Source: a virus (taxonomy: Duplodnaviria; Caudoviricetes). From it: a stretch of 64,000 bases of DNA. The notes beneath the pieces are model-generated. The model ran no database searches and was not told the DNA's origin. It saw only the letters and a program-made list of their open reading frames with translations. Positions 1-38,965 of this stretch are shown piece after piece (positions within the stretch are counted from its first letter, which is position 1; every line of letters starts with the position of its first letter). The position numbers were made by a program, and so were the translations under genes. The stretch is taken from IMG/VR virus record IMGVR_UViG_3300015607_004925, positions 32,001 to 96,000 of that record; one strand, written 5' to 3'.

Positions 1-74
1 TGTGTCGGCGGACCGAGTGCCAGCTTCTCGAGCGCCTTGGCGCAGCCCAGCTTGTACGCGGTGGCGAGCCTCAT
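1..74 (-). CDS. N-terminus of a hypothetical virion protein carrying the shared helical motif (runs off window)
   Basis: Manual translation MRLATAYKLGCAKALEKLALGPPT; TGATG overlap with the upstream gene stop at 74-76; absent from ORF track. Confidence 0.75.
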   Translation of the reverse strand, partial: MRLATAYKLGCAKALEKLALGPPT

Positions 75-622
75 CACATCATCGCTCCTTGCAACGGCGC
101 GTACACGAGGCGCTGGTTCTCGCGATCGTGCTGATTCTGCTGGTGCAGGCCGTACGCGAGCGCGCCAGCCGCGCCGAGCGCGCCGAGCGCGAGCGGGCGC
201 TTCGCCGCACCCCATGCGCGCCCCGGCAACTCCTGCAGCTGTCCGGGCAGCGCGCGCGCCGCGGCCACGAGCGGGTGCGATGGCTTGGGCAGCGACACGA
301 TCTGCGCGCCTTCGGGGGTCATCGGCGGCGGCGCCGGCGCATGCACGGGCGTGCGGACCCTGCTGTTCGGCGCCACGATGCGCGCGGTGGGCAGCGCCGC
401 GACGGTCGCGGCGGCGGCCTTGACCACCTTCTCGAGTCCGGTGGCGAACTTCCGACCCTCGCCGAGGGCCGACTCGAGCGCGCGGCTCGTCTCGGAACGC
501 ATCTTGTCGCCGAGCCCGGGCGTCGCGCGCGCGCTCGGGCGCGGCGCAGGCGCCTTCGGCGGGGGCTTGCTGGCGAAGCCTGGCCCAAGCGACGACATGA
601 CCGCCGCGACCTTCGGGTCCAC
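74..622 (-). CDS. Hypothetical Pro/Ala-rich protein with C-terminal glycine-zipper segment
   Basis: Start moved to GTG 622 just after upstream stop (MDPKVAA...); LALGALGAAGALAYG segment. Confidence 0.7.
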   Translation of the reverse strand: MDPKVAAVMSSLGPGFASKPPPKAPAPRPSARATPGLGDKMRSETSRALESALGEGRKFATGLEKVVKAAAATVAALPTARIVAPNSRVRTPVHAPAPPPMTPEGAQIVSLPKPSHPLVAAARALPGQLQELPGRAWGAAKRPLALGALGAAGALAYGLHQQNQHDRENQRLVYAPLQGAMM

Positions 623-624
623 GG

Positions 625-990
625 CTAGCCCACCGCGATGAAGAGGATCGACGCGGAGCCCGTGGTCGTGAGCAGCACCGCCGTCGGGAACGGCGTCGAC
701 GGGTTGACCCACAGGAAGTAGCCGCCGACGGCGATCGGCCACGCATCCGCGCCGCCGTTGAACTTCACGGTGCACGAGCCTGAGAGCGCCTTGATCAGCA
801 CGCCCTTCGCGCCTGGGCTCGCGAGAGTCCCGAGGTTGACCGCCTCGTCGGTGACCGCGCCCGCGTACGACCGGACGAAGTCGGCGCGGCCGGTATACGC
901 CAGGCTGACCGTCAGGTCGACGGGCGCGGCGTTCGTTCCGTCCTCGAGAGGCAGCGAGGCTGCCCCAGCGACCTTGAAGTTCTGCGCCAT
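625..990 (-). CDS. Hypothetical beta-rich virion protein
   Basis: 121 aa ORF with normal composition; TATAAT 8 nt upstream of ATG. Confidence 0.75.
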   Translation of the reverse strand: MAQNFKVAGAASLPLEDGTNAAPVDLTVSLAYTGRADFVRSYAGAVTDEAVNLGTLASPGAKGVLIKALSGSCTVKFNGGADAWPIAVGGYFLWVNPSTPFPTAVLLTTTGSASILFIAVG

Positions 991-998
991 ACCCTGGA

Positions 999-7015: not shown

Positions 7016-7783
7016 CTAGGCGTCCACCACGCCGGGGGAGGCCAGGCTCTCGTCGACGTCACCGCTCGACAGGAATGTGCCGTCGACGAAGCTGAGCACC
7101 GAGTCGATGCTCGTCGCCGTGATGCCGTCGCCCGAGGCATGCGGCCGAACGCCCGCCGGCGTGTCGGCGCCGAACGGCAGGAGGCGGTCGCTCATGCCCG
7201 AGACGTTCTCGAGCACGAGGTTCTGGCCGGCGTTCCAGCCGATCGCGTAGCTGGTGAGCATCGACAGCTCGGCGTAGAAGCCGCCACAGTAGCCGTGCGT
7301 CTTGTCGCGGAACACCGCGCCCAGTCCGAACGGGATGAGGAACAGCTCGCTGTCGAGGTTGATGAAGAACTTCTTGCCTGCCGGGTTCGAGTCCGCGGCT
7401 TGGTCGTCGAACTGGCTGGGGTCGATGCCGCCGGCGACCGCGTTGTGGTAGAGGACGCGCAGCAGGTTGCGGCCGTTCACGAAGAGGCGGCCCATCGTCC
7501 ACTGTGTCTGGGCCTTCCCTGAGACGTAGAACGAGCGCCCCGAGCCGATGGCCATCATCGGCTGCGTCGGCTTGGTCTGCGTGAAGTTCACGGCCTGCAG
7601 CATGCCGATCGCGAGCAAGCTCGCGGCGCCACCTTCGCGGAGACCGTGCTTGCGCGCGGGACCTGCCATCACGAGCGTGTCGTCGGGATGCGCCGCGGTG
7701 TACGCGGCGTTGTCCATCACCCGCTCGACGTAGCTCTCCTGGAACTTCCAGGTGTCGAAATTTTTCACCACTCCGAGCGCCAT
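7016..7783 (-). CDS. Putative tail tube protein
   Basis: 255 aa beta-rich; IGMLQAVNFTQTK..AIGSGR pattern; downstream of sheath. Confidence 0.6.
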   Translation of the reverse strand: MALGVVKNFDTWKFQESYVERVMDNAAYTAAHPDDTLVMAGPARKHGLREGGAASLLAIGMLQAVNFTQTKPTQPMMAIGSGRSFYVSGKAQTQWTMGRLFVNGRNLLRVLYHNAVAGGIDPSQFDDQAADSNPAGKKFFINLDSELFLIPFGLGAVFRDKTHGYCGGFYAELSMLTSYAIGWNAGQNLVLENVSGMSDRLLPFGADTPAGVRPHASGDGITATSIDSVLSFVDGTFLSSGDVDESLASPGVVDA

Positions 7784-7785: not shown

Positions 7786-8385
7786 TCAGGCTCCTTGTGT
7801 GCCGCGTGCGATCTCGAGGCCCTTGACGTTACCGATTGTAGCGCCGAGACCTGCGAGCAGGGTTGAAAGTGGGACGCCAAGTGGTCCCGTGACAGGATGC
7901 CCGACGAGCTTGTCGATGACGTGGCCGACGCCGTGGCCGACGAGGCCGCCGCCGAGCGTGCCGAGGCCCTGTCCCGCGACGTTGCGCGCGATCTCGCCGC
8001 CGGTCTGTTTACCGCGGACGCCCTCGACGACCGGCCACGCGAGGCCGCCGAGGTCGCCGCCGACGACGTCGCCGAAGTGACCTGCCATCTTCGGGCCGAC
8101 CATCTGCGCACCCGCAACCGCCCACGGTGGGATGTCGGTCATCGCGGCGTCGATGTTGTACGGCGCGCCCGGCGGGATGTTCCGCTCGGCCCGTTCCGCC
8201 TTCTCACGCAGGAGACCGCCGGTGACGCCGCCCGTGACGCCGCCAAGCAGTGCGCCGACGTCGGGCGACAGACCGATCCGTGGACCGAGCGTCTTACCGG
8301 CGAAGCCGCCGAGCGCCGGCCCCGCCACCGCCGGAAAAATGGCGGCGAGGCTCGCGCGCTTGATGAAGAAGCGTTCGACGGACAT
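7786..8385 (-). CDS. Glycine-zipper protein, putative virion cargo/ejection protein
   Basis: Start ATG 8385 (MSVERFFIKRAS...); several GxxxG runs after KRA and KMA. Confidence 0.65.
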   Translation of the reverse strand: MSVERFFIKRASLAAIFPAVAGPALGGFAGKTLGPRIGLSPDVGALLGGVTGGVTGGLLREKAERAERNIPPGAPYNIDAAMTDIPPWAVAGAQMVGPKMAGHFGDVVGGDLGGLAWPVVEGVRGKQTGGEIARNVAGQGLGTLGGGLVGHGVGHVIDKLVGHPVTGPLGVPLSTLLAGLGATIGNVKGLEIARGTQGA

Positions 8386-9113
8386 CAGCCCATCATGCCC
8401 TGGGGCTGTGGGGGCTGCTGCATCTTCTGGCCGAGCGCGCCGCCAGCCATCGATGCGGCCTGGTCGAACGCGGCACCGCCGAGCCCGCCCGCGATGCGCG
8501 GCGCGACCTTGCCCGCGATGCCGCCGAGGGCTTTGCCTGCGACGCCGCGACCGAGCGCGCCGAGGCCCGCGCGCGCGAGCGTCGGGCCCGCGATCGCGCC
8601 GAGCATCGGCAGGAAGGCGACCTTGATGCCGAGCGCGCCGAGCGCGGCTTCGGCGCCGGCGGTGTAGTGGTCGGTGAGCGCGCCGTACTTGCCCGCATGT
8701 CCGTATATGAGCTTCTGTGCCTTGGGCCACAGATTGTAATCCATGCGGCTCAGTGCTTCGGCGGCGGCAGGTTGAGCAAGCGCCGCGGTATCGCGCGCGA
8801 CAGTGTCGATTCCGTGCAGTTGAGAACTGAGGTTTCCGTGCAGCCCGCCCACCCCGGCACCGATGACCGCGTCGCGAAGCGGATGCTCGTCGCCACTGAC
8901 CAGGCTGGCGAGTCCACCGACGCCCGCGCCGAGCGCGGCGCCACCGAGCGGCGAACGCATGAGCGCGCTCGCGTCGAACGCCAGCTTCTCCTCGCGGCCG
9001 TGGTTCTCGCGCGACACGACGATGTTTACGCCGACGCCGCCGTTCTCGCGAAGATGGTGCGAGGCACCTTTCACGAGGTCGGCGATGAACTTGTCGAAGA
9101 AGGCGTCGGACAC
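8385..9113 (-). CDS. Glycine-zipper protein with internal shared helical motif
   Basis: EKLA-FDASAL...GAGVGG; HYTAGAEAALGALGIKVA-FLPMLG. Confidence 0.7.
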   Translation of the reverse strand: MSDAFFDKFIADLVKGASHHLRENGGVGVNIVVSRENHGREEKLAFDASALMRSPLGGAALGAGVGGLASLVSGDEHPLRDAVIGAGVGGLHGNLSSQLHGIDTVARDTAALAQPAAAEALSRMDYNLWPKAQKLIYGHAGKYGALTDHYTAGAEAALGALGIKVAFLPMLGAIAGPTLARAGLGALGRGVAGKALGGIAGKVAPRIAGGLGGAAFDQAASMAGGALGQKMQQPPQPQGMMG

Positions 9114-9128: not shown

Positions 9129-11501
9129 CTACGCCACGAGGTGCAGCTCGATGACGTTCAGGGGCTTGGGCAGGCCGATGGCGAGGTGGGTGATCACCCG
9201 GTCCGCCGACGTCGGCGAGACGCCGATGTCTGTGATGGCGAACGAGGTCAGCGGCGCACCGATCTTGGCGATCGTGCGGAGCTTGAGCAGGTCACCGCCG
9301 GTGTTCAGGGCGCCCTGGAGGAGCGTGAGCGTCTCCTGGGTCACGTTGTACTGGCCGAGGAAGTCCTCGAGGATGTCGACGAAGAACAGCGACACGAAGT
9401 CGAAATTCTTTACCACCGAGTACTCGCCGCTCTCGAGCGTCGACGGGTCGGTGGTCAGCTGGTGGACCGCGAACGGCAGCGACGAGGGCGTCTTCTGCGC
9501 GAACACGAACCAGCCGCCGTTCGACAGGTCAGTGAGCTGCGTGTCGGTGAAGTACGTGTTCGAGTCGTAGATCTGCGACACGCCGGCGATGCCGAGGTTG
9601 GTGAAGCCCTGCTGCGACGGCAGCCCGGCGGTCATGCCGCCGATCGCGCACGCCAGGTAGAAGCCGGGCTGCTGGGTGCCGCCGGTGACACCAGCGACAT
9701 CGCACTTGTCGGGCCACGCGAGGACCGTGCGCTTGCTGTTGAACGACTGCGCCACCGCGATCAGCTCGCTCACCTGCTGGCTCTTCGAGAGCGTGCGAAC
9801 GATCTGGTAGTTGACGGTCGTCGCGCCGACGAGTGCGCTGCCCGCGCGCTTGACGCCGTGTGGCAGCTCGTTCTCGACCGACGAGCTGTCCTGGCCGTTG
9901 TTGACGATCTGGATGCGCTGATCGCTGAGCACCGCCTGCACGACGAACGACGTGAAGACGCTCGCCGTGGTGATCGTCGCGTTGGGGTCGACAGGGATCT
10001 GGACGATGTCGCCGGCGGCGACGGCGCTCGACACGAACGTTCCGCTCGCGTCCTTGAGGATGAGGTAGTAGTCCGGCGCCGCGGCCGTGACCACGCCGGT
10101 GAGCGCCGCGGAGGCGACGCGCACCGTAGTGCCGTCGGCCTCCGTGATGCTCGCCGTGATGTTGCACGAGCCTGCGCCGGCGAACGGCGACTCGACGTCG
10201 ATCTGGAGATCGGTTGCCGACAGCACCGCCGCGATGTTGTAGTTCGCGACCACGATCTTGGTCGCGTCGCTGGTGACCGTGACCTTCAGGATGTCACCCG
10301 GGATGACGCCGCTCGTGATGAGCGACGTGATGCCCGTCAGCGTCACCTTGGTGATCTCGCCGCCACTCGAGCTTGTGAGCTGGAGCGGGTTGCCCGTCGC
10401 CGACGGCTCGACGATCGTCTTGGTCACCGGCAGCGTGCCGTTGCCGATGACGACACGGAAGCGCTGCGGGCGGCCGCGCGTGTTGTCGGGCAGCGCCAGG
10501 CCGACGCAATCCGTGTTCCACATCGCGAAGACCGTCACGTCGGTCGTCAACGGGACGATCGCGTAGACGTCCGAGCGCGCGGAGATGTGGTCGCGCACCG
10601 TGACGTGACCCGTGAGATCGTCGGTGAGCACGCCCACGAACTGCACGACCGAAGTCGTGTTCTCGAGCGCGACGAACGCGCCGGCTGCGAGCGGGTTGCG
10701 AGCGTCGATGCGGCCGATCTTCGACACGATCTCGTCCGCGGACTCGACCGTGTCGAGGTCGCCGAGGTCCTGGCGCAGCGCGCGGTACTGCTCGTAGACC
10801 ACCGCGTACGACACCGGCTTGGAGCCCTGGCCCGTCACCGTGATGCTCACGCCGCCGGCGATCTTGACGATGTTGCCGGTGACCGTGACGTACGAGGCGT
10901 CGATCTGGACGTCGTTGACCGTGCGCTCGATGTACCAGTGCTGATTGGCCGCCGGCGTGAACGTGCCGCCGGTGAAGTCCGACGTGGTGAGCAGGCGCGT
11001 GTCGCTGACCACGGAGGCCACCGTGAGACGCACGATGTTCGAGCCCGCGTCGACGATCACCAGCCGGTCGCCCGGCTTCACCTGGCCTGCGCCTGCCGTG
11101 TTGAACGTGGTCGGCGACGTCTCGGCCGTGTCGAACTGGTTCGGCGTCAGGGACGCCGTCGTGCCCTTCGTCCCGCTCACGATCCGCGCGCGCGCCTGGT
11201 CGAAGAAGATCTTCACGGAGGCGCTGTCGAGCACGGCGCCGACGGCGTTGTTCGGTGGCTCGGCCACGGTGATCACCGCAGGGCCCGTCGGCAACGCGAC
11301 GTCCGGCGACGGCTCGAGCGTGCCGTACGCGGCCGTGACCAGGATGTCCGCCTTGTCCGCGTAGTCCGTAGTTCCGGGCGTGAAGTAGTCCTGGATGTGG
11401 TACGCGGGGCCGACCACCAGACAGTTCAAGTCCGGGTTCGTCGGCGTCACCGTCGGCGTGGCCAGGTCCTGATACACGAGTACGACTGGGCGGATGGCCA
11501 T
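9129..11501 (-). CDS. Contractile tail sheath protein
   Basis: 790 aa; IRPVVLVYQD start; C-terminal sheath pattern (YLACAIGG...QGFTN...HQLTT...FLGQYNVT...PLNVIELHL). Confidence 0.85.
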   Translation of the reverse strand: MAIRPVVLVYQDLATPTVTPTNPDLNCLVVGPAYHIQDYFTPGTTDYADKADILVTAAYGTLEPSPDVALPTGPAVITVAEPPNNAVGAVLDSASVKIFFDQARARIVSGTKGTTASLTPNQFDTAETSPTTFNTAGAGQVKPGDRLVIVDAGSNIVRLTVASVVSDTRLLTTSDFTGGTFTPAANQHWYIERTVNDVQIDASYVTVTGNIVKIAGGVSITVTGQGSKPVSYAVVYEQYRALRQDLGDLDTVESADEIVSKIGRIDARNPLAAGAFVALENTTSVVQFVGVLTDDLTGHVTVRDHISARSDVYAIVPLTTDVTVFAMWNTDCVGLALPDNTRGRPQRFRVVIGNGTLPVTKTIVEPSATGNPLQLTSSSGGEITKVTLTGITSLITSGVIPGDILKVTVTSDATKIVVANYNIAAVLSATDLQIDVESPFAGAGSCNITASITEADGTTVRVASAALTGVVTAAAPDYYLILKDASGTFVSSAVAAGDIVQIPVDPNATITTASVFTSFVVQAVLSDQRIQIVNNGQDSSSVENELPHGVKRAGSALVGATTVNYQIVRTLSKSQQVSELIAVAQSFNSKRTVLAWPDKCDVAGVTGGTQQPGFYLACAIGGMTAGLPSQQGFTNLGIAGVSQIYDSNTYFTDTQLTDLSNGGWFVFAQKTPSSLPFAVHQLTTDPSTLESGEYSVVKNFDFVSLFFVDILEDFLGQYNVTQETLTLLQGALNTGGDLLKLRTIAKIGAPLTSFAITDIGVSPTSADRVITHLAIGLPKPLNVIELHLVA

Positions 11502-14758: not shown

Positions 14759-14764
14759 GGTGTA

Positions 14765-24506: not shown

Positions 24507-24718
24507 AGGGCCTCCATGAGGTCGGCGTAGGTGATGTCGACGGGCGCGTTGCGCACTTCGTCGGCGAGCTTGCGGAGGTCGCGTGCGAGGTCAGTGCGCG
24601 GCGCCGCCGCCGCTTCCTTGACCGCACGCGCTTCGTCGGCACGGCGACGTGTCGCGGCGTTCGCCTCGGCGAGGACCTCGTCGACGACGAGGGAGAGGTG
24701 GTTGCGGGCGCGGCTCAC
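24503..24718 (-). CDS. Small helical head-assembly protein
   Basis: 71 aa; KEAA and KLAD sites. Confidence 0.65.
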   Translation of the reverse strand: MSRARNHLSLVVDEVLAEANAATRRRADEARAVKEAAAAPRTDLARDLRKLADEVRNAPVDITYADLMEAL

Positions 24719-24999: not shown

Positions 25000-25002
25000 G
25001 GG

Positions 25003-25584: not shown

Positions 25585-25609
25585 GGGTGCCGTCTCCGCT
25601 TCGGTGAAA

Positions 25610-25615
25610 ATGATA
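25610..25615 (-). promoter_or_regulatory. Putative late promoter -10 box
   Basis: ccccc-TATCAT-tttc; GGAG RBS follows. Confidence 0.55.
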
Positions 25616-25645
25616 GGGGGCTGGTTGGGAAAAAACAAAAAGATG

Positions 25646-27927: not shown

Positions 27928-27930
27928 GGC

Positions 27931-28380
27931 TCACGGCATCCCGCGCAGCGCGCCGGCGACTTCCTGGTTGAGCCCGCCCGGCAGTGCGCCGATGTCGCGG
28001 ATCGCGCCGCCCGCGCCGCCGAGCAGCGCGCCGATGCCCATCGACGGCAGCACGCTGCCCTGGTTCGGGTCGTTCGAGAGGAAGTGCGGGACCGCGGCGA
28101 TCGCAGCGCCACCGAGCGCCGGCATGACCGAGCGCTTGAGCAGTGCGGACAGTGCCGGGTTCTCGGCGATCTTCTCGCCGACGAGGGCGCCGTACGCCGA
28201 GATGCCGTCAGCGATCGCGCGCGCCTCCTTGCGCCGGAGCCACGCCTTCATGCCGACGAGGGCGACGGCCTCCTTGAGGCCCATCTCGGAGACGCCGGAC
28301 ATCGCGCCAGCGACCTTGTGGAGGCCTGCTGCGGCGACGGCGTGACGGACGGACGGCGGAACGAGATCGTCGAGGGTCAT
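27931..28380 (-). CDS. Glycine-zipper protein with KxA sites
   Basis: HKVAG, EKIAE; GIGALLGGAGG. Confidence 0.65.
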   Translation of the reverse strand: MTLDDLVPPSVRHAVAAAGLHKVAGAMSGVSEMGLKEAVALVGMKAWLRRKEARAIADGISAYGALVGEKIAENPALSALLKRSVMPALGGAAIAAVPHFLSNDPNQGSVLPSMGIGALLGGAGGAIRDIGALPGGLNQEVAGALRGMP

Positions 28381-29642: not shown

Positions 29643-30559
29643 TGGCCCCTCACGTGTTCGATGCCCTGCTTGATGCGCGACGCTTCCGCCGCGATCTTCA
29701 CGAGCGTGGCGAACGTCCGGTTCGCTTCGGTGTCGTCGACGAGGTGGCGGTCCGCCAGCGCGGCCGTCTTGATGGTGGCTTCGTCGGGCGACGTGACGGG
29801 CCAGCCACGCGCCTCTTGCACCATCGCCAGGACGACACGGCCCGCGGAGCTGTCATGTAGCGCGAGCGCGTCCTTCTCGAACACGGCGGGGGTCGGTGCG
29901 CCGTGTGCGCGGCGGAGCTGGGTCTGGAGTGCGCTGAACGCGTCGTCGAACGCCAGCTCGGCCTGCTTGAGTTGGTCCTCGAGGACGTCTGCGAGCTTGC
30001 GCAGGCGGCGACCACGGAACGCGGCTTCCTTGGCCTCGTCCTTCTTCGCGGCTGACGGCGGCGCCTTCTTCGGCTTCTTGTCCGCGTCGTCCTTGGCCTT
30101 CTGTTTTTGGCCCTTGGGGAACGGGCCATCGTTGTCGTCGTCGATCGGAGCGTCGTCCTCGTCGCCGTCGCGGAGGTCCTGGGCCGCCGGCGGCGCGCCG
30201 TGCGCGCCCATCTCGTCGGGCAGCGACATCTCGTCGCCGTCGGGCTCCGCGTGCGGCAGCGCGCCGTCGTCAGGGTGCGCGCCGCCCATCTGGCCCATGA
30301 GCAGCTGCAGGATCTGGCGCGCGTCGATCGGGTCGAACTCGCTCGTCATGTCCGGCGTGCCCTGCGCCTTCTGCTGCTCCATGAGCCGCAGGAACGCCAT
30401 CGTGTTCGCGGAGTGCGCGAGCCGATCGATCTGGTCGGGGTTGAGCTGGCTCTGCTGCGCCTCGGCCGCCGCGACGTCGGCGAGCTTCTCGCCGCGCATG
30501 AAGCGGTCGACCACGCGCGTGGCCATCTTCTCGAAGTCCTGTTCTTGGTACGCGCGCAT
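29633..30559 (-). CDS. Hypothetical head-assembly protein
   Basis: 308 aa; LNPDQIDRLAHSAN; acidic linker; KxA-rich. Confidence 0.7.
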   Translation of the reverse strand: MRAYQEQDFEKMATRVVDRFMRGEKLADVAAAEAQQSQLNPDQIDRLAHSANTMAFLRLMEQQKAQGTPDMTSEFDPIDARQILQLLMGQMGGAHPDDGALPHAEPDGDEMSLPDEMGAHGAPPAAQDLRDGDEDDAPIDDDNDGPFPKGQKQKAKDDADKKPKKAPPSAAKKDEAKEAAFRGRRLRKLADVLEDQLKQAELAFDDAFSALQTQLRRAHGAPTPAVFEKDALALHDSSAGRVVLAMVQEARGWPVTSPDEATIKTAALADRHLVDDTEANRTFATLVKIAAEASRIKQGIEHVRGQCS

Positions 30560-31218
30560 CAGTGAAGGATCTCCCCGCCGAGCTGGACGTCGTCAACACT
30601 GACGGTCATCTCCCGGCTCTTCAGCTTGAACATGATGTCCGTGACATTCGCCGGACGCGTCTTCGTCAGCAACTGGGAGTTCTCGACGGCGGACTTGAGC
30701 AGCGAGTGCGCCGCCGCGGCGTCGACGCTGCCGAGCTTGGCGTGCCGGAGTGCCTGGCCGCGGAAGAAGGTCTCACGCATCGACGCCTCGACGACGTGGC
30801 CCGGGTCAAGCTTGACCATGGCGCCCATCACGTGCGCGACGGCCTCGACGCCGTAGAGCACGGCCTTTTGCAGATACGCGAGGCCTTCGGGCGTGCCCTG
30901 GTAGCGGTGTACCCACAGCTGCTTGTCGAACATGTCACGGAACACGGACACGTCGAAGAACAGGTGTCGGTATGCACGCGTCACCTCGGTCGGCAGCCCT
31001 GTGCGCTCGTAGATGTCGCGATCTTCGGCGCCCGCGATGAGCCACGGCTGAAGACGTTCGCGCTCGAACTCCTCGTCGTAGATCTCTTTCGCGCGGTCGA
31101 TGACCGGTGACACCTCAAGCTGACGCACGTGCCGCCAGCACGCCGCCTCGATCGGTTGCGGCGGTTCGGCGGCCGCGGCCTTGACCGCGATCCAGCGATG
31201 ATCCGGCCTACAACGCAC
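30559..31218 (-). CDS. Hypothetical protein
   Basis: Start moved to GTG 31218 (MRCRPDHRW) with AAGGAG upstream; AYRHLFFDVSVF. Confidence 0.7.
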   Translation of the reverse strand: MRCRPDHRWIAVKAAAAEPPQPIEAACWRHVRQLEVSPVIDRAKEIYDEEFERERLQPWLIAGAEDRDIYERTGLPTEVTRAYRHLFFDVSVFRDMFDKQLWVHRYQGTPEGLAYLQKAVLYGVEAVAHVMGAMVKLDPGHVVEASMRETFFRGQALRHAKLGSVDAAAAHSLLKSAVENSQLLTKTRPANVTDIMFKLKSREMTVSVDDVQLGGEILH

Positions 31219-34048
31219 TGGCGTCGGGCTCCTTGACGGCCTGCACACCGCGGGACAAGCGGAGCACGAGGTCTCCCAATCCCTTGAACGTCGACTGCAG
31301 GTTCTCATCCAGATCGGCGAACGTCTGCTCGCCGATCTGCGGCTTCAGGTCGCCTTCCTGCATCCATAGAGTGAGGCGCACGCGCGCGAGATTGTCGACC
31401 GTCTTCTCGAGGTTCGGCAGGTACTGGGCGACGATGCCGTGCAGCGCTGGCGACTGCGCGAGCGTCGCGACCGCTGCGGCGTCGAACATGTCGGCCGAGT
31501 GGAGCGCGGCGGCCTGGTCGAGGAAGGCCGGATTGACCTCCTGTGGCAGGGCCATCGCGTTCGGGCCGTCGGGCGACATCATCGCGTGCGGCTGCTGCGG
31601 CTGGCCGCCCATCATGGACGGGTCCATGCCGGGCGCGCCGCCGCCGGGCGGCATGCCACCCATCATCGACGGGTCCATGCCGCCGCCGGCGCCGCCCATC
31701 ATCGACGGATCACCCATCGACGGGTCCATGCCGCCGCCGGCGTCGCCCATCATCGACGGGTCGTTGGCCGCCGGCGGGAACGGGCCGGGCGAGCCCATGC
31801 CGGGTGGGATGCTCGGGTCCATGCCGGGCTGCGGGCCCGTCGGCGACGGCCCCATCGTCGGCGCACCGCCGGTCGCGAGATTCATCGACGGCGGGGGAGC
31901 GCCCATCGCCTGCGACTGCACCATCGGCGCGACGGGCGCGCCGCCGCCGATCTCGTGCGAGCGCGCGAGCAGCTGTTGGATGGTCTGCTGGCGCTCGACG
32001 AGCTTCTGCATCTCGTGCTGGATTGCCTGGTCCATCTCCATCGCGGCCAGGTCGAGCGGCGCGGGCGAGGGCGGCGCCGGCGGCGGGGCCATCGCGGCCA
32101 TCGCGGCCTGCTCGCCCATCGACGGATCCATGCTCGGGTCGCCGCCGGCGTCCGGCGCGCCGCCGCCACTCGGCGGCGACTTCTTCTTCTTCGGCTTGTC
32201 GCTGGAGTCGTCGTCGGCCGCGAGCTTGTCGAGCGTCACCTGGACGCGCGCGAGCTGTGCCGGCGACGCGATCCACGCCGACGCGTGCTTGTCGGCGGCA
32301 GCCTTGGTCAGCAGCGCGTCGGCCTCGTCGACGGAGATGCCGTACTCGTGCGCGAGCTTCTTCAGCGCCGCGATGCGTGGCATCGGCAGCGAGCGGTCGA
32401 CCGAGAACTGACGCGCGCCAGCGTCCTTGATCGCGACCTTCTTCGCACCGACCGCCGAAAGCATCGACGACATGCACGCCTGGAGGTCGAGCGCGGACTG
32501 GAAGAAGCTCTTGGCGTTCTTGCGCTCGCCGAGCGGGATCCAGATGAAGTCGGGCGGCATGTACACGACGTCGGCGCCCTTCGGCATCCAGATGGTGCCG
32601 TACGCGTGCGTCGGGTCGGTCGCGATCGTCTTCTCCTGGTAGGAGAGGGCGTTGGTCACCTTGAGACGGCGCACGCCGTCAGCGCCCGTCGAGATCGACT
32701 CGATCTCGAGTGGGACGGTGGCTTGGAACGTCGTGCCCTTCTGGCGGACGAAGAAGCCCTTGCCCACACGTGGTGCGCCGTCGACCTTGTCGAACATGCG
32801 CTCGTGGAGCTTGCCCGCGATGCCGTCGGCGACGAGGTCGCGGCCGACCAGGCGGTTCGGTTCGATGTAGCTGCCGTCGCTGAACACCGCGAGGTACGGC
32901 TTGGCGTCGAAACCGCGGCGCGAGACGTAGTCCGTCTCGTCCGGGCGGCCCATCGGGTAGACCTTGTTCGCCGAGCCGTGCAGCGTCGGGTCGTAGTATG
33001 AGTTGTTGATGAGCGGGTTGTGCCCCGGCACGAGCGGGCGCCGGCCGTAGCGCGTGCCCTCGTCGAAGATGTCGATCGGGTTCGGCATCACGAACGCCGG
33101 CTTCTCCGCGCCGTCCGATGCGTAGAGGCAGTAGATGCCCGGCTGCTTCGGCTCGGTCCAGCGTTCGTACGGCTGCTCCTGCACCGCCATGTTGCGGTTC
33201 AGGCGCTCGTCGCGCGCGGCGAAGCCCTTCTTGCGGACGCCGGCGTACGCCTCCGCAGCGCGGTCGCCGAAGATGCGCTTGAAGTCGGTCGGCGTGTTGT
33301 CGGCATCGGCGATCCACAGCGCGCCGCCATGGAGCTGCTTCGCCGCGACCTTCTCGAGTCGCGGCGCGAGCGCGCGCTGCAGCGCGGTGACGCCGTAGAC
33401 CTCGGCCGCCTGCTTGAGCGTGCGCGGGTGCTTCTTGAGGAACGCCGCGAACGCGGTCTTGATGCCGTTCGGTGCACGGTCGAGCACGTCGATCAGCAGC
33501 GTCGCATCTTCTGACGCCGCCTTGGTGGTGGCGTCGAGGTTCTCGCGCGCACATACGCGCGCGACGTCGACGAGTGCCTTGGGCACCCATGCCGCGTACG
33601 AGAAGCGGCCGGTGATCGGCGGCACGACGACGTTGCGGATGTCGACGTCGGTGTAGAGCGTCTCGGGCGTCTTGACGCCGGTGCCGAGGGACGACAGCGC
33701 CGACTTCTCGATCTCGTCGAGCCAGCCCTTGGTGAGCGGCAGGAAGATGTTGAGCTTCTTGTGATAGAAGATCTCGAGCGGCTTGATCGCGTTGTCGGAC
33801 ATCACGACCGGGATGTAGATCGGCTGCTCGCCGCGCAGCACGACGAAGGCACCGACGCCGGAGCCCTTGTCGAGATCGACGTTCAGGATCTTGAACGTGA
33901 CGACGTCAGCGAGGACGTCGGGCATGCGCGACGACAGCAGCGCGTACGCCATGTCGGAGAATCCCTGCTCGAAGAGCGCGGTCTCCTGATCCGGCCCGGC
34001 CTCCATGCCGGCCTGCATCTGCTGGGTACGTGGAGAGAGTGCCGGCAT
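31208..34048 (-). CDS. Large hypothetical head/core protein with Met-Gly-Pro low-complexity region
   Basis: 946 aa; globular N-terminus, KxA sites, MDPSM(M)G repeats. Confidence 0.75.
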   Translation of the reverse strand: MPALSPRTQQMQAGMEAGPDQETALFEQGFSDMAYALLSSRMPDVLADVVTFKILNVDLDKGSGVGAFVVLRGEQPIYIPVVMSDNAIKPLEIFYHKKLNIFLPLTKGWLDEIEKSALSSLGTGVKTPETLYTDVDIRNVVVPPITGRFSYAAWVPKALVDVARVCARENLDATTKAASEDATLLIDVLDRAPNGIKTAFAAFLKKHPRTLKQAAEVYGVTALQRALAPRLEKVAAKQLHGGALWIADADNTPTDFKRIFGDRAAEAYAGVRKKGFAARDERLNRNMAVQEQPYERWTEPKQPGIYCLYASDGAEKPAFVMPNPIDIFDEGTRYGRRPLVPGHNPLINNSYYDPTLHGSANKVYPMGRPDETDYVSRRGFDAKPYLAVFSDGSYIEPNRLVGRDLVADGIAGKLHERMFDKVDGAPRVGKGFFVRQKGTTFQATVPLEIESISTGADGVRRLKVTNALSYQEKTIATDPTHAYGTIWMPKGADVVYMPPDFIWIPLGERKNAKSFFQSALDLQACMSSMLSAVGAKKVAIKDAGARQFSVDRSLPMPRIAALKKLAHEYGISVDEADALLTKAAADKHASAWIASPAQLARVQVTLDKLAADDDSSDKPKKKKSPPSGGGAPDAGGDPSMDPSMGEQAAMAAMAPPPAPPSPAPLDLAAMEMDQAIQHEMQKLVERQQTIQQLLARSHEIGGGAPVAPMVQSQAMGAPPPSMNLATGGAPTMGPSPTGPQPGMDPSIPPGMGSPGPFPPAANDPSMMGDAGGGMDPSMGDPSMMGGAGGGMDPSMMGGMPPGGGAPGMDPSMMGGQPQQPHAMMSPDGPNAMALPQEVNPAFLDQAAALHSADMFDAAAVATLAQSPALHGIVAQYLPNLEKTVDNLARVRLTLWMQEGDLKPQIGEQTFADLDENLQSTFKGLGDLVLRLSRGVQAVKEPDASAL

Positions 34049-34061
34049 CTGTGGGTCCTGT

Positions 34062-34235
34062 TCAGCTGGTCGTCGGGAAGGAGACGACCTTGGGGATGTT
34101 CGCGGCAGGTGACGCGCCGCCCAGCTCCCGCGTCTTCTTCGCCTTCAAGACGCTGAGGTTGGGGTTGAGGATCTCGGCGAGCTTCTCCTCGATCGCTTCG
34201 CGGCCCGCCAGGCGAATGTGGCGGGGAAGGCTCAC
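34062..34235 (-). CDS. Small hypothetical protein (57 aa)
   Basis: GTG 34235 overlapping upstream stop: MSLPRHIRLAGREAIEEKLAE... Confidence 0.55.
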   Translation of the reverse strand: MSLPRHIRLAGREAIEEKLAEILNPNLSVLKAKKTRELGGASPAANIPKVVSFPTTS

Positions 34236-35548
34236 GACGAGGCGGCCCGCTGCGCCGCGGTCGCGCGACGGAACATGTTGCGGAGCGACGCTTCCTTCTT
34301 GTCGTCGTCCTTGTCGTCGTCCTTCTTGCCCTCCATCTTCTCGCGGATGAAGTCGGGCATGCCGCCCTTGTCCTTGTCGCCATCGTCCTTCTTCTCGTCC
34401 TTCTTCATGAAGGGCGGGAGGGCGCCGTCCTCGGCCGACTTCGTGCCCTGGTTGCCGCCACGGCCGTCGTACGCGCCGGGACGCGAGTGCGTCGCCTCGG
34501 GCGAGTGCTTCTGGTAGCCGTCGGTGCGCGAGCCCGGCGGCGTCGCCGACGGCGCGGCGGCGACGCGCTCCGCGGCCTCCTTCTGGAGGCCGCTGAGGTA
34601 GTGGTACTTCTCCTCGGTGTTGAGGCCCATGCACATGCGGACGGTCGCGATCTTCACGTCCTCGGTCATCGAGCCCGGCAGGAACTCGTGGATCTCGGCG
34701 GCGGTCTTCTTGAACAGCGCGATGTACGGGTCCTCGCCCGCGGCCTTCGCCGAGGTCTCGGTCACCGAGTTCGAGCCGCTCGGGGTCTCCGCCGGCTTGT
34801 TCGGCTGCGGCGTCTCGCGGCCGATGACCGCCGGACCGCGCACGTGTTCCATCATGGCGCCGAGTCCGCCCTGCGAGGGCAGCACGGCGTAGCCCGCGGG
34901 ACGCTGCGCGGCGTCCATCTTCGCCTCGGCGGACGACATCTCCATGTTGCCCTTGTCGCCGCCCATGATCGTCGAGCCCTCGGCCGCCTTCTGGAAGAGC
35001 GCCCGCAGCGACGACGACTTGGTCTGGTCGTTCGGCGAGTTCTCCTTGTGGTCGGTCTCCTTCGGGGCGTTCGGCTGCGGGGCCTCCTTGCCGACCGCAC
35101 CCGGGCGCGTGTCGACGTCGGTCTTGCCGCGGCTGTCCTCGGCGTAGCCCGGCGGGCGCTGCGAGGCGTCCATCTTCGTCTCGCCCGCCGGCGCCTGGCC
35201 CTGATCGTTGCCCTTGTCGCCGCCCTCGATCGTCGAGCCCTCGGCCGCCTTGGTCATCAGCTGCTCCGCGCTGCGATCCGCGAGCGCGCGGACGTCGTCC
35301 CACGAGGCGAGCTTGTTCCATCCGGCCGCCTTGAAGTTCGGCTGGCGCTTGAACCACTCGCTCGCCTCCAGAATCTGCGCCGCGACCTTCTGGTCGTCTG
35401 CGGGGCTCACGCCGCGCTCGAGGTCGAGGTTCACGTGGTCTGCGATGTAGTCGGCGACCTTGTGTGCGGTGCCCTCGTCGGGGAACATGGCGTGGCCGCT
35501 GTTGACCAGCGCAGTCTGGATGCCTCGGACGTACGCGTGCTTGAACAT
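34232..35548 (-). CDS. Head/core protein with shared N-terminal motif and internal duplication
   Basis: MFKHAYVRGIQTAL; two copies of KAAEGSTIxGGDKGN...KMDAxQRPxGYA...PQPN; GAGGAG RBS. Confidence 0.75.
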   Translation of the reverse strand: MFKHAYVRGIQTALVNSGHAMFPDEGTAHKVADYIADHVNLDLERGVSPADDQKVAAQILEASEWFKRQPNFKAAGWNKLASWDDVRALADRSAEQLMTKAAEGSTIEGGDKGNDQGQAPAGETKMDASQRPPGYAEDSRGKTDVDTRPGAVGKEAPQPNAPKETDHKENSPNDQTKSSSLRALFQKAAEGSTIMGGDKGNMEMSSAEAKMDAAQRPAGYAVLPSQGGLGAMMEHVRGPAVIGRETPQPNKPAETPSGSNSVTETSAKAAGEDPYIALFKKTAAEIHEFLPGSMTEDVKIATVRMCMGLNTEEKYHYLSGLQKEAAERVAAAPSATPPGSRTDGYQKHSPEATHSRPGAYDGRGGNQGTKSAEDGALPPFMKKDEKKDDGDKDKGGMPDFIREKMEGKKDDDKDDDKKEASLRNMFRRATAAQRAASS

Positions 35549-35616: not shown

Positions 35617-35814
35617 TCACCCGAGGACCTTCGCCTTCGGCGCGCCGGCTGCCATCGCTGGCGCTGCCGGCGCCGGCGCCGCAGACGGAGGGGGGCTGGT
35701 GCCGGCTTGCCCGGTAAGCATCGGGTTGTAGCCCGCTGCCCCCTGTTGCATGTTGCCGAGCTTGAGATGGGCGAGTGCGTCGCGCGCACCTTGTGTGTAC
35801 TTGGACCGGATCAT
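35617..35814 (-). CDS. Small protein with shared N-terminal motif
   Basis: MIRSKYTQGARDALAHLKLG. Confidence 0.7.
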   Translation of the reverse strand: MIRSKYTQGARDALAHLKLGNMQQGAAGYNPMLTGQAGTSPPPSAAPAPAAPAMAAGAPKAKVLG

Positions 35815-36266
35815 AGGGGTTGCTCCTTCGGGTGTGACCCCAGCAGATGTCCGATGCCACGGCCCAATGAGGCGCCCGCGCGGCCGAGGATTGGTGCGCC
35901 AAGAATGCCGAGCGCGGGGTAGCCGTACATCGAGCCGGCAAGCCCCCCGAGCGCGCCGAGCGCCCCGGCGAGGCGGCCTTCGTGCGGGTCGGGATGTGTG
36001 AGCTGTGAGGCAAGCCCCGCACCCGCCGCGAGCGTGCTCGCGCGCGCAAGCCAGTTGAAGCGCGATCCGGCAGGACCGCTGACCGCGGGCCAGAAGACGC
36101 TCTTGGGCGACAAGAAGCCGCCCTCGCCGAACGCCTTCGGGCCCTCGATGAATGCACGGCCTGGCTGGCCAACGAGACCCTGGGCGACGTGCGACAGCAT
36201 GTTGGCTGCGATCTTGAGGCGCGCGAGCGCGTCAGCCGCGCCGCGTGCGTGGGCCTGTTTCAACAT
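35811..36266 (-). CDS. Glycine-zipper protein with shared N-terminal motif
   Basis: MLKQAHARGAADALARLKIAA; GALGALGGLAG. Confidence 0.7.
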   Translation of the reverse strand: MLKQAHARGAADALARLKIAANMLSHVAQGLVGQPGRAFIEGPKAFGEGGFLSPKSVFWPAVSGPAGSRFNWLARASTLAAGAGLASQLTHPDPHEGRLAGALGALGGLAGSMYGYPALGILGAPILGRAGASLGRGIGHLLGSHPKEQPL

Positions 36267-38047
36267 CAGTACGCCCCCTCGGCGCCTTGGCCGAACTCAG
36301 TGCCCGCGACGTACGCTGGCACAGGCGACGCGCCGTGGAGGTTGGACACGTCGCCGCGATGGATGCCCGCGAGCAACGACTCCTTGAGGTAGCGGTGCGC
36401 GAGGCGCGCCATCCAGTCGGGGTTGAGCAGCGGCGTGCGGGACGCCGGGCGCATGAGCGGCATCGCGCGCGGGCCGCTGTCGGCGATCGCGACCGACGTG
36501 ATGCCGTGGCGCACGAGGTTCTGCGCGATGGTCGGGGTGACCGCAGTGCCCGCGGTGTAGTGGAGGATGCCGTCGGCCAACGTCTCGCCGTGCGCCTCGG
36601 CGATCGGCACGCGCCGGCGCGACGCCGCGAGCGCGGCGTGGAACTTGTTGTAGTCGACGACGTCGCCCTTGATGAACGCGTCGTCGGGCCCGGGGTCGGT
36701 GATCTGCACGTGGTTGAGCACGCTCTTGGCCAGGGTCTCGAGGTGGCGCTTGTCGACCTCGGAGCCTGCTCGCTTGTACACGTCCGCAAGCGCGTCCACC
36801 AGGTAGCGGCGCCCGTCGCCCAGGCCCTTGTGGCGGACGATCTCGTCGGGCTTGGGCACGCCGTCGGAGAGCGTGTCGCCGGCGTACGTCGACTGCCCCA
36901 CGCCGACGAGCACGCGGTGGTCGGGCGGGACGTAGTGGCGCTCGTCGTCGACCATCACGTAGTGGCCGCCCTGGGGCGCCTTGTCGATCGCCTTGATGAC
37001 GCCGTCGCGCCCGGCGAGCACGGCCTTGTGCGCGAACGACGTCGGGATCTCGAGCAGCGAGCGCACGCCCTTCATGCCCTCGAGCTTCTTCTCGTCGTCG
37101 GTCTTCGTGATGCGCCCGCCGTGCTTGGCGTTGAGCGAGAACTGGGTGAGCGGCTCCGACAGCGCCTGCGCCGCGCGCATGCCGACGTTGGTGCCGATCG
37201 GGTGCACCGTGCCCGTCGGCGACAGCCCTTGGCACTTCTGGCAGACGCCGTGCGCGGCCTCGCAGGTCATCGGCGATCGCACGATGACGCTCTTGTTCGC
37301 GGCGGCGAGCTGCGAGGCGACCTGCGGCGTGATGAGGCGGTTCGTGCCCGCCTCGTAGCGGTCGATGATGTGCGGGTCGACGCCGGCCATCGCGATGCCG
37401 TTCTTCGTGCCGCAGTCGACCGTCGTCACGAGCTGGTCGCTCATGTTGTTGACGAGGATCTTGGCGAGGTCGCCGGGCTCGACGACGGAGATGTTCGAGA
37501 GCACCGCGTTGACGCGCGCCTCGCCGCCGGCCACCCACGCGTCGGCGGGCTTGAGGCCCTCGCTGAAGCTCTTGTCGATCAGCCAGGGCACGACCTTGCC
37601 CTTGGAGTCGCGCACCATCACCGGCGCGCCGACGGCGCGCATCAGCTGCGCGGCGTTGCCGCGGCCGCCGGAGCGCACCATCTCGCCCATCGTGCCCGGG
37701 TGCTTCTTCGCCAGCTCGAGCATCGCGTTCTGCGCGCCCGCGAGCGCCTTCTCCTTGTCGGCGGTCGACGTCGCCTTGCGGAACGCGTCGACGTGCGGCT
37801 TGAGCGCGGCGTCGCGCTCGCCCGTGCGGGGCGCGATGTCGTCGAGCCCGACCGAGATGCCGTCGAGCGTCGCGATCTCGTCGCCGAGGCGCTTGAGTTT
37901 GGTGACGACGTCGGGGTACTTGTCCGGCGCCTCCTTCGCGACGCCGACGAGCAGCTCGTTCAGCGACCCCTTGGTGAGCACGCCGCGACCGCGCCACTTC
38001 TCGGGAAGCGCTTGATCGACGAGGTGCCTGCCCAGGGTGGTCGCCAT
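36266..38047 (-). CDS. rpoC: DNA-directed RNA polymerase, beta' C-terminal half
   Basis: TTLGR; MVRSGGRG; bridge-helix-like ARVNAVLSNISVVEPGDLAKIL; DCGT...RSPMTC..GVCQKC Zn site; trigger loop AAQALSEPLTQFSLNAKHGG; DKRHLE. Confidence 0.9.
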   Translation of the reverse strand: MATTLGRHLVDQALPEKWRGRGVLTKGSLNELLVGVAKEAPDKYPDVVTKLKRLGDEIATLDGISVGLDDIAPRTGERDAALKPHVDAFRKATSTADKEKALAGAQNAMLELAKKHPGTMGEMVRSGGRGNAAQLMRAVGAPVMVRDSKGKVVPWLIDKSFSEGLKPADAWVAGGEARVNAVLSNISVVEPGDLAKILVNNMSDQLVTTVDCGTKNGIAMAGVDPHIIDRYEAGTNRLITPQVASQLAAANKSVIVRSPMTCEAAHGVCQKCQGLSPTGTVHPIGTNVGMRAAQALSEPLTQFSLNAKHGGRITKTDDEKKLEGMKGVRSLLEIPTSFAHKAVLAGRDGVIKAIDKAPQGGHYVMVDDERHYVPPDHRVLVGVGQSTYAGDTLSDGVPKPDEIVRHKGLGDGRRYLVDALADVYKRAGSEVDKRHLETLAKSVLNHVQITDPGPDDAFIKGDVVDYNKFHAALAASRRRVPIAEAHGETLADGILHYTAGTAVTPTIAQNLVRHGITSVAIADSGPRAMPLMRPASRTPLLNPDWMARLAHRYLKESLLAGIHRGDVSNLHGASPVPAYVAGTEFGQGAEGAY

Positions 38048-38048
38048 C

Positions 38049-38492
38049 TCACATCGGGCCGTAGCCGCCCTGCATCATCTGCTGCTGGCGGCGCCGCTCC
38101 TCCGCCTGTTGGTTGTGGCGGTGGAGCATGTAGAGCCCGCCGCCGGCGATGAGCGACGGCGCGAGGGTCTTGAGGTTGCCGACCGCCGCGCCGCGCGCGG
38201 CCGCGCCGGCCTCGGGCGACGGCGCGCCGCCGAGCCCCTGGCGGAGGTTGCCGAACAGCGCCTTCGCGGCGTCGAGCTGACCGGAGCCGAACGCCTTGGC
38301 GCGGCCCATCAGGCCGCCGGCCGCCGCCGGCGGCGCCGCGGGCGACGCCGCGGGCGACGGACCGGGCCCGAGACCGGCCGGGCCGAGATCGAGATGCGTC
38401 GCGACCCCCGGTGCGACGGTGTTCGCGTGCTTCTCGAGGCCGAGACAGCGGAGCGCGTCGGCCCGCCCCTGGGCCATGTATCGTTCGAGCAT
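38049..38492 (-). CDS. Gly/Ala-rich protein with shared N-terminal motif
   Basis: MLERYMAQGRADALRCLGLEKHA. Confidence 0.7.
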   Translation of the reverse strand: MLERYMAQGRADALRCLGLEKHANTVAPGVATHLDLGPAGLGPGPSPAASPAAPPAAAGGLMGRAKAFGSGQLDAAKALFGNLRQGLGGAPSPEAGAAARGAAVGNLKTLAPSLIAGGGLYMLHRHNQQAEERRRQQQMMQGGYGPM

Positions 38493-38965
38493 CAGAACAC
38501 CGTCCCGACGGCCGTGGGTTGTCCCATGTCACCGAGCCGGCTGGCCGTGTCGCCGGCGGAGAGATTCGAGGGCGCGCCCCACGCGGTCGCGCGGTCGAGC
38601 GGGTCCCGGGTCGAGAGCTGCGTGTTGGGCGAGATCGGCGCGTCGATCTCCTCGAGCATCTTCTCGAGGTCGTCCGAGTCCTCGGCGCCCGGCGTGCAGT
38701 CGGCCTTCTTGTTCGCCCGCTCCGACTCCGCCTTGCGGGCCGCGTCGAAGCCGTGGAACGTGCGGTCGGGGATCTTCAGGCGCAGCTCTTCGGCGGCCGA
38801 CTTCAGGCCGAGCTTGTCGAGCGCGGCCGCGCCGCCGAGCACGTAGGCGCGCTTGACCTTCTCGGGCAGCTTCTTGCCCTTGGGCGTCGCGTCCGCGAAC
38901 TCGCGCGCGACATCCGGGTGCTTGGCAAACAAGAAACGCCTTTGACTCTCGCTACGGAACGGCAT
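38492..38965 (-). CDS. Hypothetical protein with internal shared motif
   Basis: MPFRSESQRRFLFAKHP N-terminus; VKRAYVLGGAAALDKLGLKSAA. Confidence 0.7.
   Translation of the reverse strand: MPFRSESQRRFLFAKHPDVAREFADATPKGKKLPEKVKRAYVLGGAAALDKLGLKSAAEELRLKIPDRTFHGFDAARKAESERANKKADCTPGAEDSDDLEKMLEEIDAPISPNTQLSTRDPLDRATAWGAPSNLSAGDTASRLGDMGQPTAVGTVF

Follow-up and report, generated by a model that had tools for sequence, protein, structure and literature searches.

A short modular tag on eleven unrelated late proteins of an uncultured large phage: a possible protease-released capsid-loading signal

We analysed a 64,000-nt stretch of viral DNA (hereafter the window), which comprises bases 32,001-96,000 of a 184,915-bp IMG/VR virus record (IMGVR_UViG_3300015607_004925; Duplodnaviria, Caudoviricetes) with direct terminal repeats and a G+C content of 66.5%. 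An earlier note had drawn attention to a short motif, [YH]xxGxxxALxxLx[LI], recurring in eleven late proteins of this phage, and had proposed that it is a tag that targets its carriers to the capsid. All eleven listed instances were found at their sites, within window positions 1-38,965 and in minus-strand coding frames. Because spurious open reading frames (ORFs) are abundant at 66.5% G+C, genes were called with a codon-usage model trained on the same genome. The tagged genes are listed below in window coordinates, with bit scores from the tag profile described further on.

1-74, minus strand: 5' end of a 99-aa gene that runs on to genome position 31775, before the window; tag at 12-71, 23 bits
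8385-9113, minus strand: 242-aa protein with an internal tag (residues 145-164; 8622-8681), 21 bits
13138-14175, minus strand: 345-aa protein; tag at residues 2-21 (14113-14172)
14172-14564, minus strand: 130-aa protein with a TTG start, called with the same 130 aa in public collections; tag at residues 3-22 (14499-14558)
14579-14758, minus strand: 59-aa mini-protein; tag at residues 5-24 (14687-14746), 29 bits (29.5 bits in the orthologue from G002, a complete related genome)
14780-15508, minus strand: protein with an ambiguous start; tag at 14987-15046
34232-35548, minus strand: 438-aa protein with an atypical tag (ending in ALVNSGH) at residues 1-20 (35489-35548)
35617-35814, minus strand: 65-aa mini-protein composed of the tag (35755-35814) and a Pro/Ala-rich tail, 30 bits
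35811-36266, minus strand: 151-aa protein composed of the tag (36207-36266), a K-x-A junction, a linker and a Gly-rich hydrophobic body
38049-38492, minus strand: 147-aa protein encoded between two RNA polymerase (RNAP) genes; its tag, at 38433-38492, is atypical (Met at the aromatic position)
38492-38965, minus strand: 157-aa protein (or 146-aa, from 38932); tag at residue ~30/41 (38801-38860)

The strict pattern has eight matches in the window, all of them minus-strand and in frame with the coding sequence, and none elsewhere in the six reading frames of the 184,915-bp genome; a slightly looser pattern adds one off-frame match (22265-22306, plus strand). A much looser one (aromatic-xx-G...φ...φ, where φ is a hydrophobic residue) matches many unrelated proteins, so that only the full motif is meaningful. 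In a profile hidden Markov model (HMM) of 20 columns the eleven instances score 21-30 bits, vs at most 4.3 bits for the other 276 of the 287 predicted proteins and at most 8.1 bits in 20 shuffled proteomes; the motif stands clear of both, shuffled proteins being the comparison that the earlier note had called for. Since this separation is circular, the model having been built from the same eleven instances, we ran leave-one-out models, in which nine of the eleven still outrank every untagged protein; the two weak instances are the atypical tags of 34232-35548 and 38049-38492. A six-frame scan of the genome found no further tags. The replication block (46.4-64 kb) has none, in agreement with what the earlier note had said of the replication genes, and neither has the remaining genome.

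That the carriers are otherwise unrelated was borne out as well: an all-against-all BLASTP comparison with the tag masked found no similar pair (best E = 0.5), so the carriers do not form one paralogous family. Pfam-A and PHROGs gave no family match over the tag region of 10 tagged proteins at E <= 0.1. The only Pfam match in these 10 proteins lies outside the tag, in the N-terminal half of 8385-9113 (Gly-zipper_YMGG, residues 57-96, 30.9 bits, which exceeds the cut-off). The carriers are small proteins of 59-438 aa, in which Pro/Ala/Gly/Gln/Ser/Thr make up 42-65% of the residues, vs 40% proteome-wide. Within this genome the tag is 16-20 residues long and stands mostly at the start of the protein; it is internal in 2-4 carriers and C-terminal in none. 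A literature search found no paper describing the motif. We also considered a bias at the codon level: Leu14 is encoded by CTC in 10 of 11 tags, vs 54% of the Leu codons in the late block (p = 0.012), which is mildly above the genome preference and probably reflects mere codon preference.

The profile consensus reads M-φ-K-x-A-[YH]-x-x-G-x-x-x-A-L-x-x-[LF]-[GK]-φ. The motif as first written needs some recasting: the instances are real, while the core really consists of G9, A13 and L14 (invariant in the eleven instances), the aromatic residue at position 6 and Ala5. On a helical wheel φ2, A5, Y6, G9, A13 and L/F17 fall within 40-160 degrees, on one face, and A5-G9-A13 make up a small-xxx-small-xxx-small stripe, the classic pattern of close helix-helix packing. 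The net charge of the tag is about +1.5. An AlphaFold2 (AF2) model of the 151-aa protein places a helix at residues 2-16 and a low-confidence linker at 18-39 (mean predicted local distance difference test score, pLDDT, 58, and ~54 in the tag).

Searching IMG/VR with the C-terminal half of the RNAP β' subunit (β'-C, 36266-38047) recovered 44 related loci (46-90% identity) on contigs of up to 190 kb. In these loci 77 of 77 tag matches follow the coding strand, and they stand at the N-termini of the products of genes that flank those of the RNAP. We called genes by the same procedure and iterated the HMM in the complete relatives G002-G005 (n = 4), and tags occur in all four, with shuffled proteomes reaching at most 8.7 bits. 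The 67 unique instances, from a clade of 145-190-kb phages, retain G9 and A13 in 100%, L14 in 94% and the aromatic residue at position 6 in 95%; the aromatic residue follows Met by exactly 5 residues in 30/67 and lies within 9 residues of Met in 46/67. Their non-tag parts fall into ~35 BLAST-level clusters, an upper bound on the number of true families. Within families, the G/A/L positions of the tag are among the best-conserved columns, and the linkers drift.

Two larger searches extend this picture. A profile search of 1.84 billion representative proteins found eight further small proteins whose tags are significant and lie at or close to residue 1, among them relatives of the 65-aa protein (P0127, P0130 and P0131); two have a second tag. 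The three large matches of the same search proved to be artefacts: P0121, a tandem-repeat protein of 74 aa, is matched in part 34 times, at 5 bits each time, and the HMM sees no tag in P0122 or P0129. The proteins with two tags each are the metagenomic relatives P0123 and P0124. P0123 appears to be a natural fusion of homologues of the adjacent 38492-38965 and 38049-38492 proteins, with K-x-A directly before the internal tag, an arrangement that would be consistent with polyprotein-like processing. Scanning IMG/VR with a back-translated pattern gave 46 matches, ~26 of them on contigs of the clade; the non-clade matches are about as many as a rough chance estimate predicts, and none of those loci has a second tag. 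The major capsid protein of this phage (22541-23479) has 1,043 homologues in a collection of 5.8 billion proteins, and none of the 120 listed bears a name, so the clade is large, with no cultured member named there.

The tags also vary by lineage, at position 17. In lineage A (this phage and its 90% relative) the residue is Leu in 12/15 tags and Phe/Tyr in 0/15; in lineages B and C (54-81% β'-C identity) it is Phe/Tyr in 29/38 and Leu in 1/38 (Fisher p = 1e-9, vs lineage A). As tag counts are phylogenetically non-independent within families, the fairer figure is that at the family level, 6 of 6: the change from Leu to Phe/Tyr occurred in parallel in six unrelated families (1-74, 13138-14175, 35617-35814, 35811-36266, 38049-38492 and 38492-38965). 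For instance, the G002 orthologues of 1-74 and 13138-14175 keep the tag with Phe17 and Tyr17, respectively, and the orthologue of 38049-38492 in lineage C has a canonical tag with Phe17. The two atypical-tag families keep their own residues, and the most distant group combines Leu17 with Phe/Met at position 19. Gene conversion among tags was rejected as an explanation (tag DNA has a mean identity of 51% and a longest common run of 15 nt). The pattern points to one shared, co-evolving binding partner for all tags, since co-evolution with a single site to which all tags bind would be expected to change unrelated proteins in parallel.

Several of the carriers deserve comment. The 438-aa protein is conserved in 39 related loci, directly downstream of RNAP β'-C, and F2, K3, A5, V7, R8, G9 and L14 are among the best-conserved columns of its family. 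It has no match in Pfam, PHROGs or the ESM Atlas (best Atlas score 0.75, below the noise level), carries 15 K-x-A strings, and contains an internal duplication of 'AAEGSTI-x-GGDKGN' (residues ~101-114 and ~189-202). Two gene models of the earlier note proved ambiguous at their starts. One is 38492-38965 (157 aa), with 38492-38932 (146 aa) as the alternative; the string 'KKLPEKVK' upstream of its tag is conserved in relatives. The other is 14780-15508, which from ATG 15508 encodes 242 aa, with the tag internal after a weak GNAT-like segment, and from ATG 15103 encodes 107 aa, with the tag at residues ~20-39. The shorter form is favoured by public callers and by the codon-usage caller, and the G+C content at third codon positions (GC3) drops to ~0.5 upstream of 15103; for the longer form speak an ATGA overlap at 15508 with the upstream stop, a fully open frame and the weak GNAT matches. 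The segment in question (15104-15505, minus strand; 402 bp) has a G+C content of 55.5%, vs 66.5% for the genome, is open in the frame of the tagged gene with a GC3 of ~0.49, and matches four GNAT Pfam families, all below their cut-offs (E = 0.0025-0.06, best 18.5 bits). It may be a newly acquired enzyme domain fused ahead of the tag, or a decaying insert. An Rfam scan of 14700-15700 gave no match.

All tagged genes lie in a single minus-strand block (window 1-46,354) that encodes the portal, RNAP, head and tail proteins. It is followed by a plus-strand block with an SNF2 helicase, PD-(D/E)XK nucleases, a primase and a PolA that includes a UDG domain. Among GenBank phages, searches at the protein level identified Salmonella phage Arash, a myovirus, and Vibrio phages D69, D148 and D181 as relatives; a megablast search of 24 kb against GenBank phages gave no match. 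The other features that bear on the argument are:

7016-7783, in the minus-strand block: homologue of Arash gp237, which was detected in particles
9129-11501, in the minus-strand block: homologue of Arash gp236, which was detected in particles
12290-13138, in the minus-strand block: homologue of Arash gp234, which was detected in particles
15505-15984, in the minus-strand block: homologue of Arash gp233, which was detected in particles
22541-23479, minus strand: major capsid protein, 312 aa, HK97 fold (low-confidence AF2 model, pLDDT 49), 42% identical to the Arash major capsid protein
25003-25638, minus strand: scaffold-like protein, 211 aa, which contains K-x-A 11 times and has a conserved [YF]xxG...HKxA element at its C-terminus
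25646-27391, minus strand: prohead-protease-like protein (phrog_18299 'head maturation protease', E = 2.6e-8, residues 106-202), homologue of Arash gp222
31208-34018, minus strand: conserved 936-aa head-module protein with 14 K-x-A strings, homologue of the Arash gp218 'structural protein'
36266-38047, minus strand: C-terminal half of RNAP β' (Pfam Rpb1_5), homologue of Arash Gp216, with tagged genes on both sides
39508-43857, minus strand: multisubunit RNAP, a fusion of β and the N-terminal half of β' (with Pfam matches to Rpb2_6, Rpb1_2 and others), homologue of Arash Gp206
44567-46354, minus strand: portal protein homologue (tblastn to Arash gp204 'portal protein', E = 3e-82); the Arash counterpart was detected in particles
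61551-63185, minus strand: large terminase

There is a single RNAP set in the genome, and the fusion of β to β'-N with a separate β'-C, an unusual split, is the layout of Arash Gp206/Gp216. Between the RNAP genes an ORF with a low coding score (38952-39491) contains a LAGLIDADG-like string, recognised by eye only. For the capsid protein model, all 33 Foldseek matches at E <= 1e-3 and the top 50 VIA-align matches (Z 9.1-11.8) are capsid or encapsulin shells; phmmer searches of the PDB with the capsid, 936-aa and protease-like proteins found nothing. Just downstream of the capsid gene, a 137-aa product (22028-22441, minus strand) includes six tandem VSTEPL hexapeptides. Gly-rich hydrophobic stretches of the glycine-zipper type occur in 8385-9113, 7786-8385, 24715-24999, 25646-27391 (C-terminal part), 27388-28380, 35811-36266 and 38049-38492, a hint that the putative cargo has helical segments that act on membranes or pack tightly. 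In the plus-strand block, the family-A DNA polymerase (57883-60828, plus strand) has a domain of the uracil-DNA-glycosylase superfamily at its N-terminus (Pfam UDG, E = 4e-9), before the 3'-5' exonuclease domain.

Comparison with Arash reveals that the tagged genes occupy slots between conserved homologues of particle-detected Arash proteins, and that these slots are empty or otherwise filled in Arash. The orthologues of gp233 and gp234, adjacent in Arash, are separated here by four tagged genes; the slot between the gp236 and gp237 orthologues, empty in Arash, holds one (8385-9113); five are found around the RNAP genes. These slots are also taken by tagged genes in distant relatives, there with unrelated sequences. 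The Arash counterparts of the portal, gp218 and gp222 products were also detected in particles, and when LC-MS/MS was applied to purified particles the RNAP β homologue was the most-detected protein and β' was also abundant (PMC10585845). The tag itself is absent from the 50 kb searched in each of Arash (best score 3.6 bits) and Vibrio phage D181 (best 2.8 bits). Since these phages lack it, the tag is, as far as such comparisons go, an innovation of the uncultured sub-lineage.

The second sequence feature is the string K-x-A, which the earlier note had seen, as K-x-A/G, before or after the tag. In the head and cargo proteins K-x-A occurs 98 times, vs 39.9 +/- 5.5 in within-protein shuffles, and K-x-A-[ASG] 52 times, vs 12.2 +/- 3.2; in the tail-side proteins and the remaining genome K-x-A is at expectation. 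The head modules of the tagless relatives have the same excess (K-x-A-[ASG] 27 times vs 5.6 +/- 2.1 in Arash and 27 vs 5.4 +/- 2.2 in D181), and their other late proteins have none; the regions compared were 24005-35548 in the window, 17730-25171 in Arash (locus L087) and 14891-22134 in Vibrio phage D181 (locus L088). The enrichment of K-x-A-[ASG], ~4-5-fold, is thus specific to head-assembly proteins, and its presence in tagless relatives indicates that the K-x-A code predates the tag. About half of the tags have K-x-A ahead of the aromatic residue, and the 151-aa family has a conserved [IV]-K-x-A that separates the tag from the variable linker. Because of the enrichment in head-assembly proteins, tagless relatives included, K-x-A/G is probably the site of a prohead protease, and the protease-like product of 25646-27391 is the candidate enzyme.

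We favour, at about even chances, the reading that the tag is a capsid-loading label released by proteolysis, in the manner of the capsid targeting sequence (CTS) of phage T4. The tag would be a docking helix, modular and specific to the lineage, through which a diverse set of small and for the most part disordered accessory proteins reaches a single partner within the prohead as it assembles; the docked cargo would be packaged with the DNA, and probably also with the virion RNAP; and the prohead protease would then cut at K-x-A/G, at or just past the end of the helix, and free the mature cargo from the docked helix. The 211-aa scaffold-like protein is an unproven candidate for the receptor or for the evolutionary source of the tag. 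An hhalign comparison of the tag profile with the scaffold-family alignment, which picked 'AYVKGWND' with a probability of 0.4% and E = 0.14, was discarded as support for the latter. In favour of the reading are the protease-like gene in the head module, the homologous RNAP as the most-detected protein of purified Arash particles, and the precedents of T4 and P1, in which short N-terminal signals load foreign proteins into heads. The cargo-loading proposal of the earlier note is supported in part: the tag is a selected, modular element on unrelated proteins encoded in variable slots, K-x-A/G normally comes after it, and position 17 changes in parallel. Support for the observation is good, and for the mechanism circumstantial.

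A number of findings weigh against loading. The RNAP subunits themselves carry no tag; that they ride in on tagged neighbours is speculation. The cultured relatives share the capsid, protease, portal and RNAP and yet have no tag, so the tag is not required for RNAP or for head assembly in the wider group. GenBank phage searches found no cultured member of the tag-bearing clade. The Arash particle list of 116 proteins includes a primase and helicases, and its authors raise the possibility of carry-over, so that some entries may be contaminants (PMC10585845). The earlier note had asked for a test of whether the tag is confined to late genes; it is so in the present genome, in which only the virion/RNAP block is tagged, and not in distant ones, where some tagged genes lie outside the late block, isolated and on the strand opposite to their neighbours (in the relatives' genome coordinates, G003 100456 and 101690, G004 112734, and G005 157393; loci L063, L072 and L084). 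With regard to cleavage, K-x-A/G is assigned to the protease from its enrichment, and the count of tags in which K-x-[AG] starts in the last five positions or shortly after (60/67, vs 11.4/67 control windows) is partly circular, as HMM positions 16-20 include K-x-[AG]. The AF2 support for the helix is of low confidence, and we rejected an amphipathic helix (hydrophobic moment 0.228, vs 0.221 in shuffles).

The packing stripe on the conserved face would also fit a permanent co-assembly helix, retained in the virion, with the tags packing together or onto Gly-zipper segments of the head module to form a heteromeric internal body or ejection complex. Gly-zipper-like segments are frequent in the tagged and neighbouring proteins, some proteins (P0123, P0124) have two tags, and a concerted change of the tags is expected, too, if they bind one another; yet K-x-A/G at the end of the tag suggests that tag and body are parted, and mostly disordered, unrelated bodies would be odd in a defined complex, and we regard this explanation as unlikely. 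The arrangement of five of the eleven tagged genes directly beside the two RNAP genes, which is clade-wide, raises the question of whether the tag docks to a single site on the phage RNAP, its carriers being accessory or regulatory factors; there is one RNAP set, and no α, ω or σ partner was recognised in the minus-strand block. Such a role is, in our judgement, highly unlikely, as the other six tagged genes stand among tail-side structural genes 20-37 kb away, Arash and D181 have a homologous RNAP but no tag, and the K-x-A strings link the tag to head maturation.

We give a similarly slight chance to the notion that the helix has no targeting role and serves the protease only, as an exosite or extended substrate context that draws it to a nearby K-x-A. 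K-x-A before the aromatic residue in about half of the tags, K-x-A/G after most, and the K-x-A directly before the internal tag of P0123 would fit this notion; however, the tags of distant relatives begin at Met with no K-x-A ahead, many K-x-A strings in head proteins have no adjacent tag, and the tagless relatives retain the code. Least credible of all is a role away from the virion, in which the tag would be a host-target-binding or membrane-association helix of injected or cytoplasmic effectors, or a chaperone-binding signal. The few tagged genes outside the late block of distant genomes and the net charge of the tag could be taken that way, but there is no amphipathic signature, the invariant Gly and Ala point to specific protein-protein packing, and linkage to virion genes is strong both here and in G002. 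To return to the loading label, a far-reaching version of it is also improbable, if a little less so than the last three alternatives: a clade-wide, programmable 'address label and cut site', by which dozens of unrelated, quickly exchanged proteins would be loaded for injection, the label docking to one conserved site of the HK97-fold shell or scaffold in the way of encapsulin cargo peptides. The cargo would then include accessory partners of the packaged RNAP and possibly enzymes, and the system would make a mechanistic bridge between the loading of phage internal proteins and that of encapsulin cargo, as well as a handle for protein delivery.

How proteins are chosen to be packed in the head and injected is understood in molecular detail just for the 10-residue signal of T4 and partly for DarB of P1; for giant phages with a packaged RNAP the choice is an open question. 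The CTS of T4 is found on the internal proteins IPI, IPII and IPIII and on Alt (Mullaney & Black 1996, reviewed in PMC9026906), and the ability of short N-terminal signals to load foreign proteins into heads was reported for T4 (PMC9026906) and P1 (PMC9024508). Like the tag, the CTS is a short N-terminal peptide common to otherwise divergent proteins, its cargo set varies among related phages, and it ends at a prohead-protease site whose cleavage frees the cargo in the head, for which K-x-A/G would be the counterpart here. The tag differs from the CTS (10 aa) in being roughly double its length (16-20 aa), in occurring internally or in duplicate at times, and in having 11 carriers in one genome; the rule of gp21 is L/I-x-E instead of the putative K-x-A/G, the head module is not T4-like (312-aa HK97-fold capsid protein), and loading is here predicted from sequence. 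Their sequence motifs also appear to differ, the tag consensus with its terminal K-x-A/G being unlike a peptide that finishes in L/I-x-E. We would rate it an even bet that the tag is a functional analogue of the CTS, and we do not claim descent from it.

In P1, as proposed here, an N-terminal signal of <=30 aa (that of DarB) is enough to get a foreign protein into the head of a myovirus (PMC9024508). The P1 signal is proven, that of the present phage is predicted from its genes, and the P1 authors found no consensus among the Dar proteins (PMC9024508), in contrast to the strict consensus on many proteins here. SPN3US and phiKZ are likewise large, package many proteins and have a multisubunit RNAP associated with the virion; their prohead protease removes N-terminal propeptides, some of 20-24 residues, and its cleavage motifs are repeated in head proteins (PMC10052503, PMC5694885). 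In that literature, however, there is no shared propeptide consensus and the cleavage rule ends in Glu, and our phage has a single RNAP set with a β-β' fusion and head genes unrelated by sequence. The K-x-A picture matches that of T4 and SPN3US, in which repeated protease motifs mark both the ends of propeptides and the places where these are cut up (PMC9026906, PMC10052503).

Encapsulin cargo-loading peptides offer another parallel, being short conserved peptides on diverse cargo that dock to one site of an HK97-fold shell, and the modelled capsid protein of our phage structurally matches both encapsulin shells and phage capsids. Encapsulin peptides are usually C-terminal, have another motif and are not removed; the tags here are mostly N-terminal and in no case C-terminal. 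The C-terminal coat-binding helix-turn-helix of P22-type scaffolding proteins is also short and helical and docks to the inside of the shell, and the C-terminal [YF]xxG...φ...HKxA of the 211-aa scaffold-like protein recalls the layout of the tag, but this likeness is not significant (hhalign, as above) and the element lacks the tag's invariant Ala-Leu. We do not claim that the tag belongs by descent to the T4 CTS, P1 DarB, SPN3US or encapsulin systems. What the present case offers is a sharp consensus shared by numerous unrelated carriers, together with a candidate cleavage code to match and an evolutionary signature of one receptor. As a sequence handle, the tag allows the putative injected cargo of an abundant, entirely uncultured clade to be catalogued from metagenomes, and K-x-A-[ASG], a conserved candidate prohead-protease code, can be checked in the existing mass-spectrometry data for Arash. 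If the loading label is real, it would be a new natural protein-loading signal and a portable loading tag for HK97-fold shells, beside those of T4, P1 and the encapsulins.

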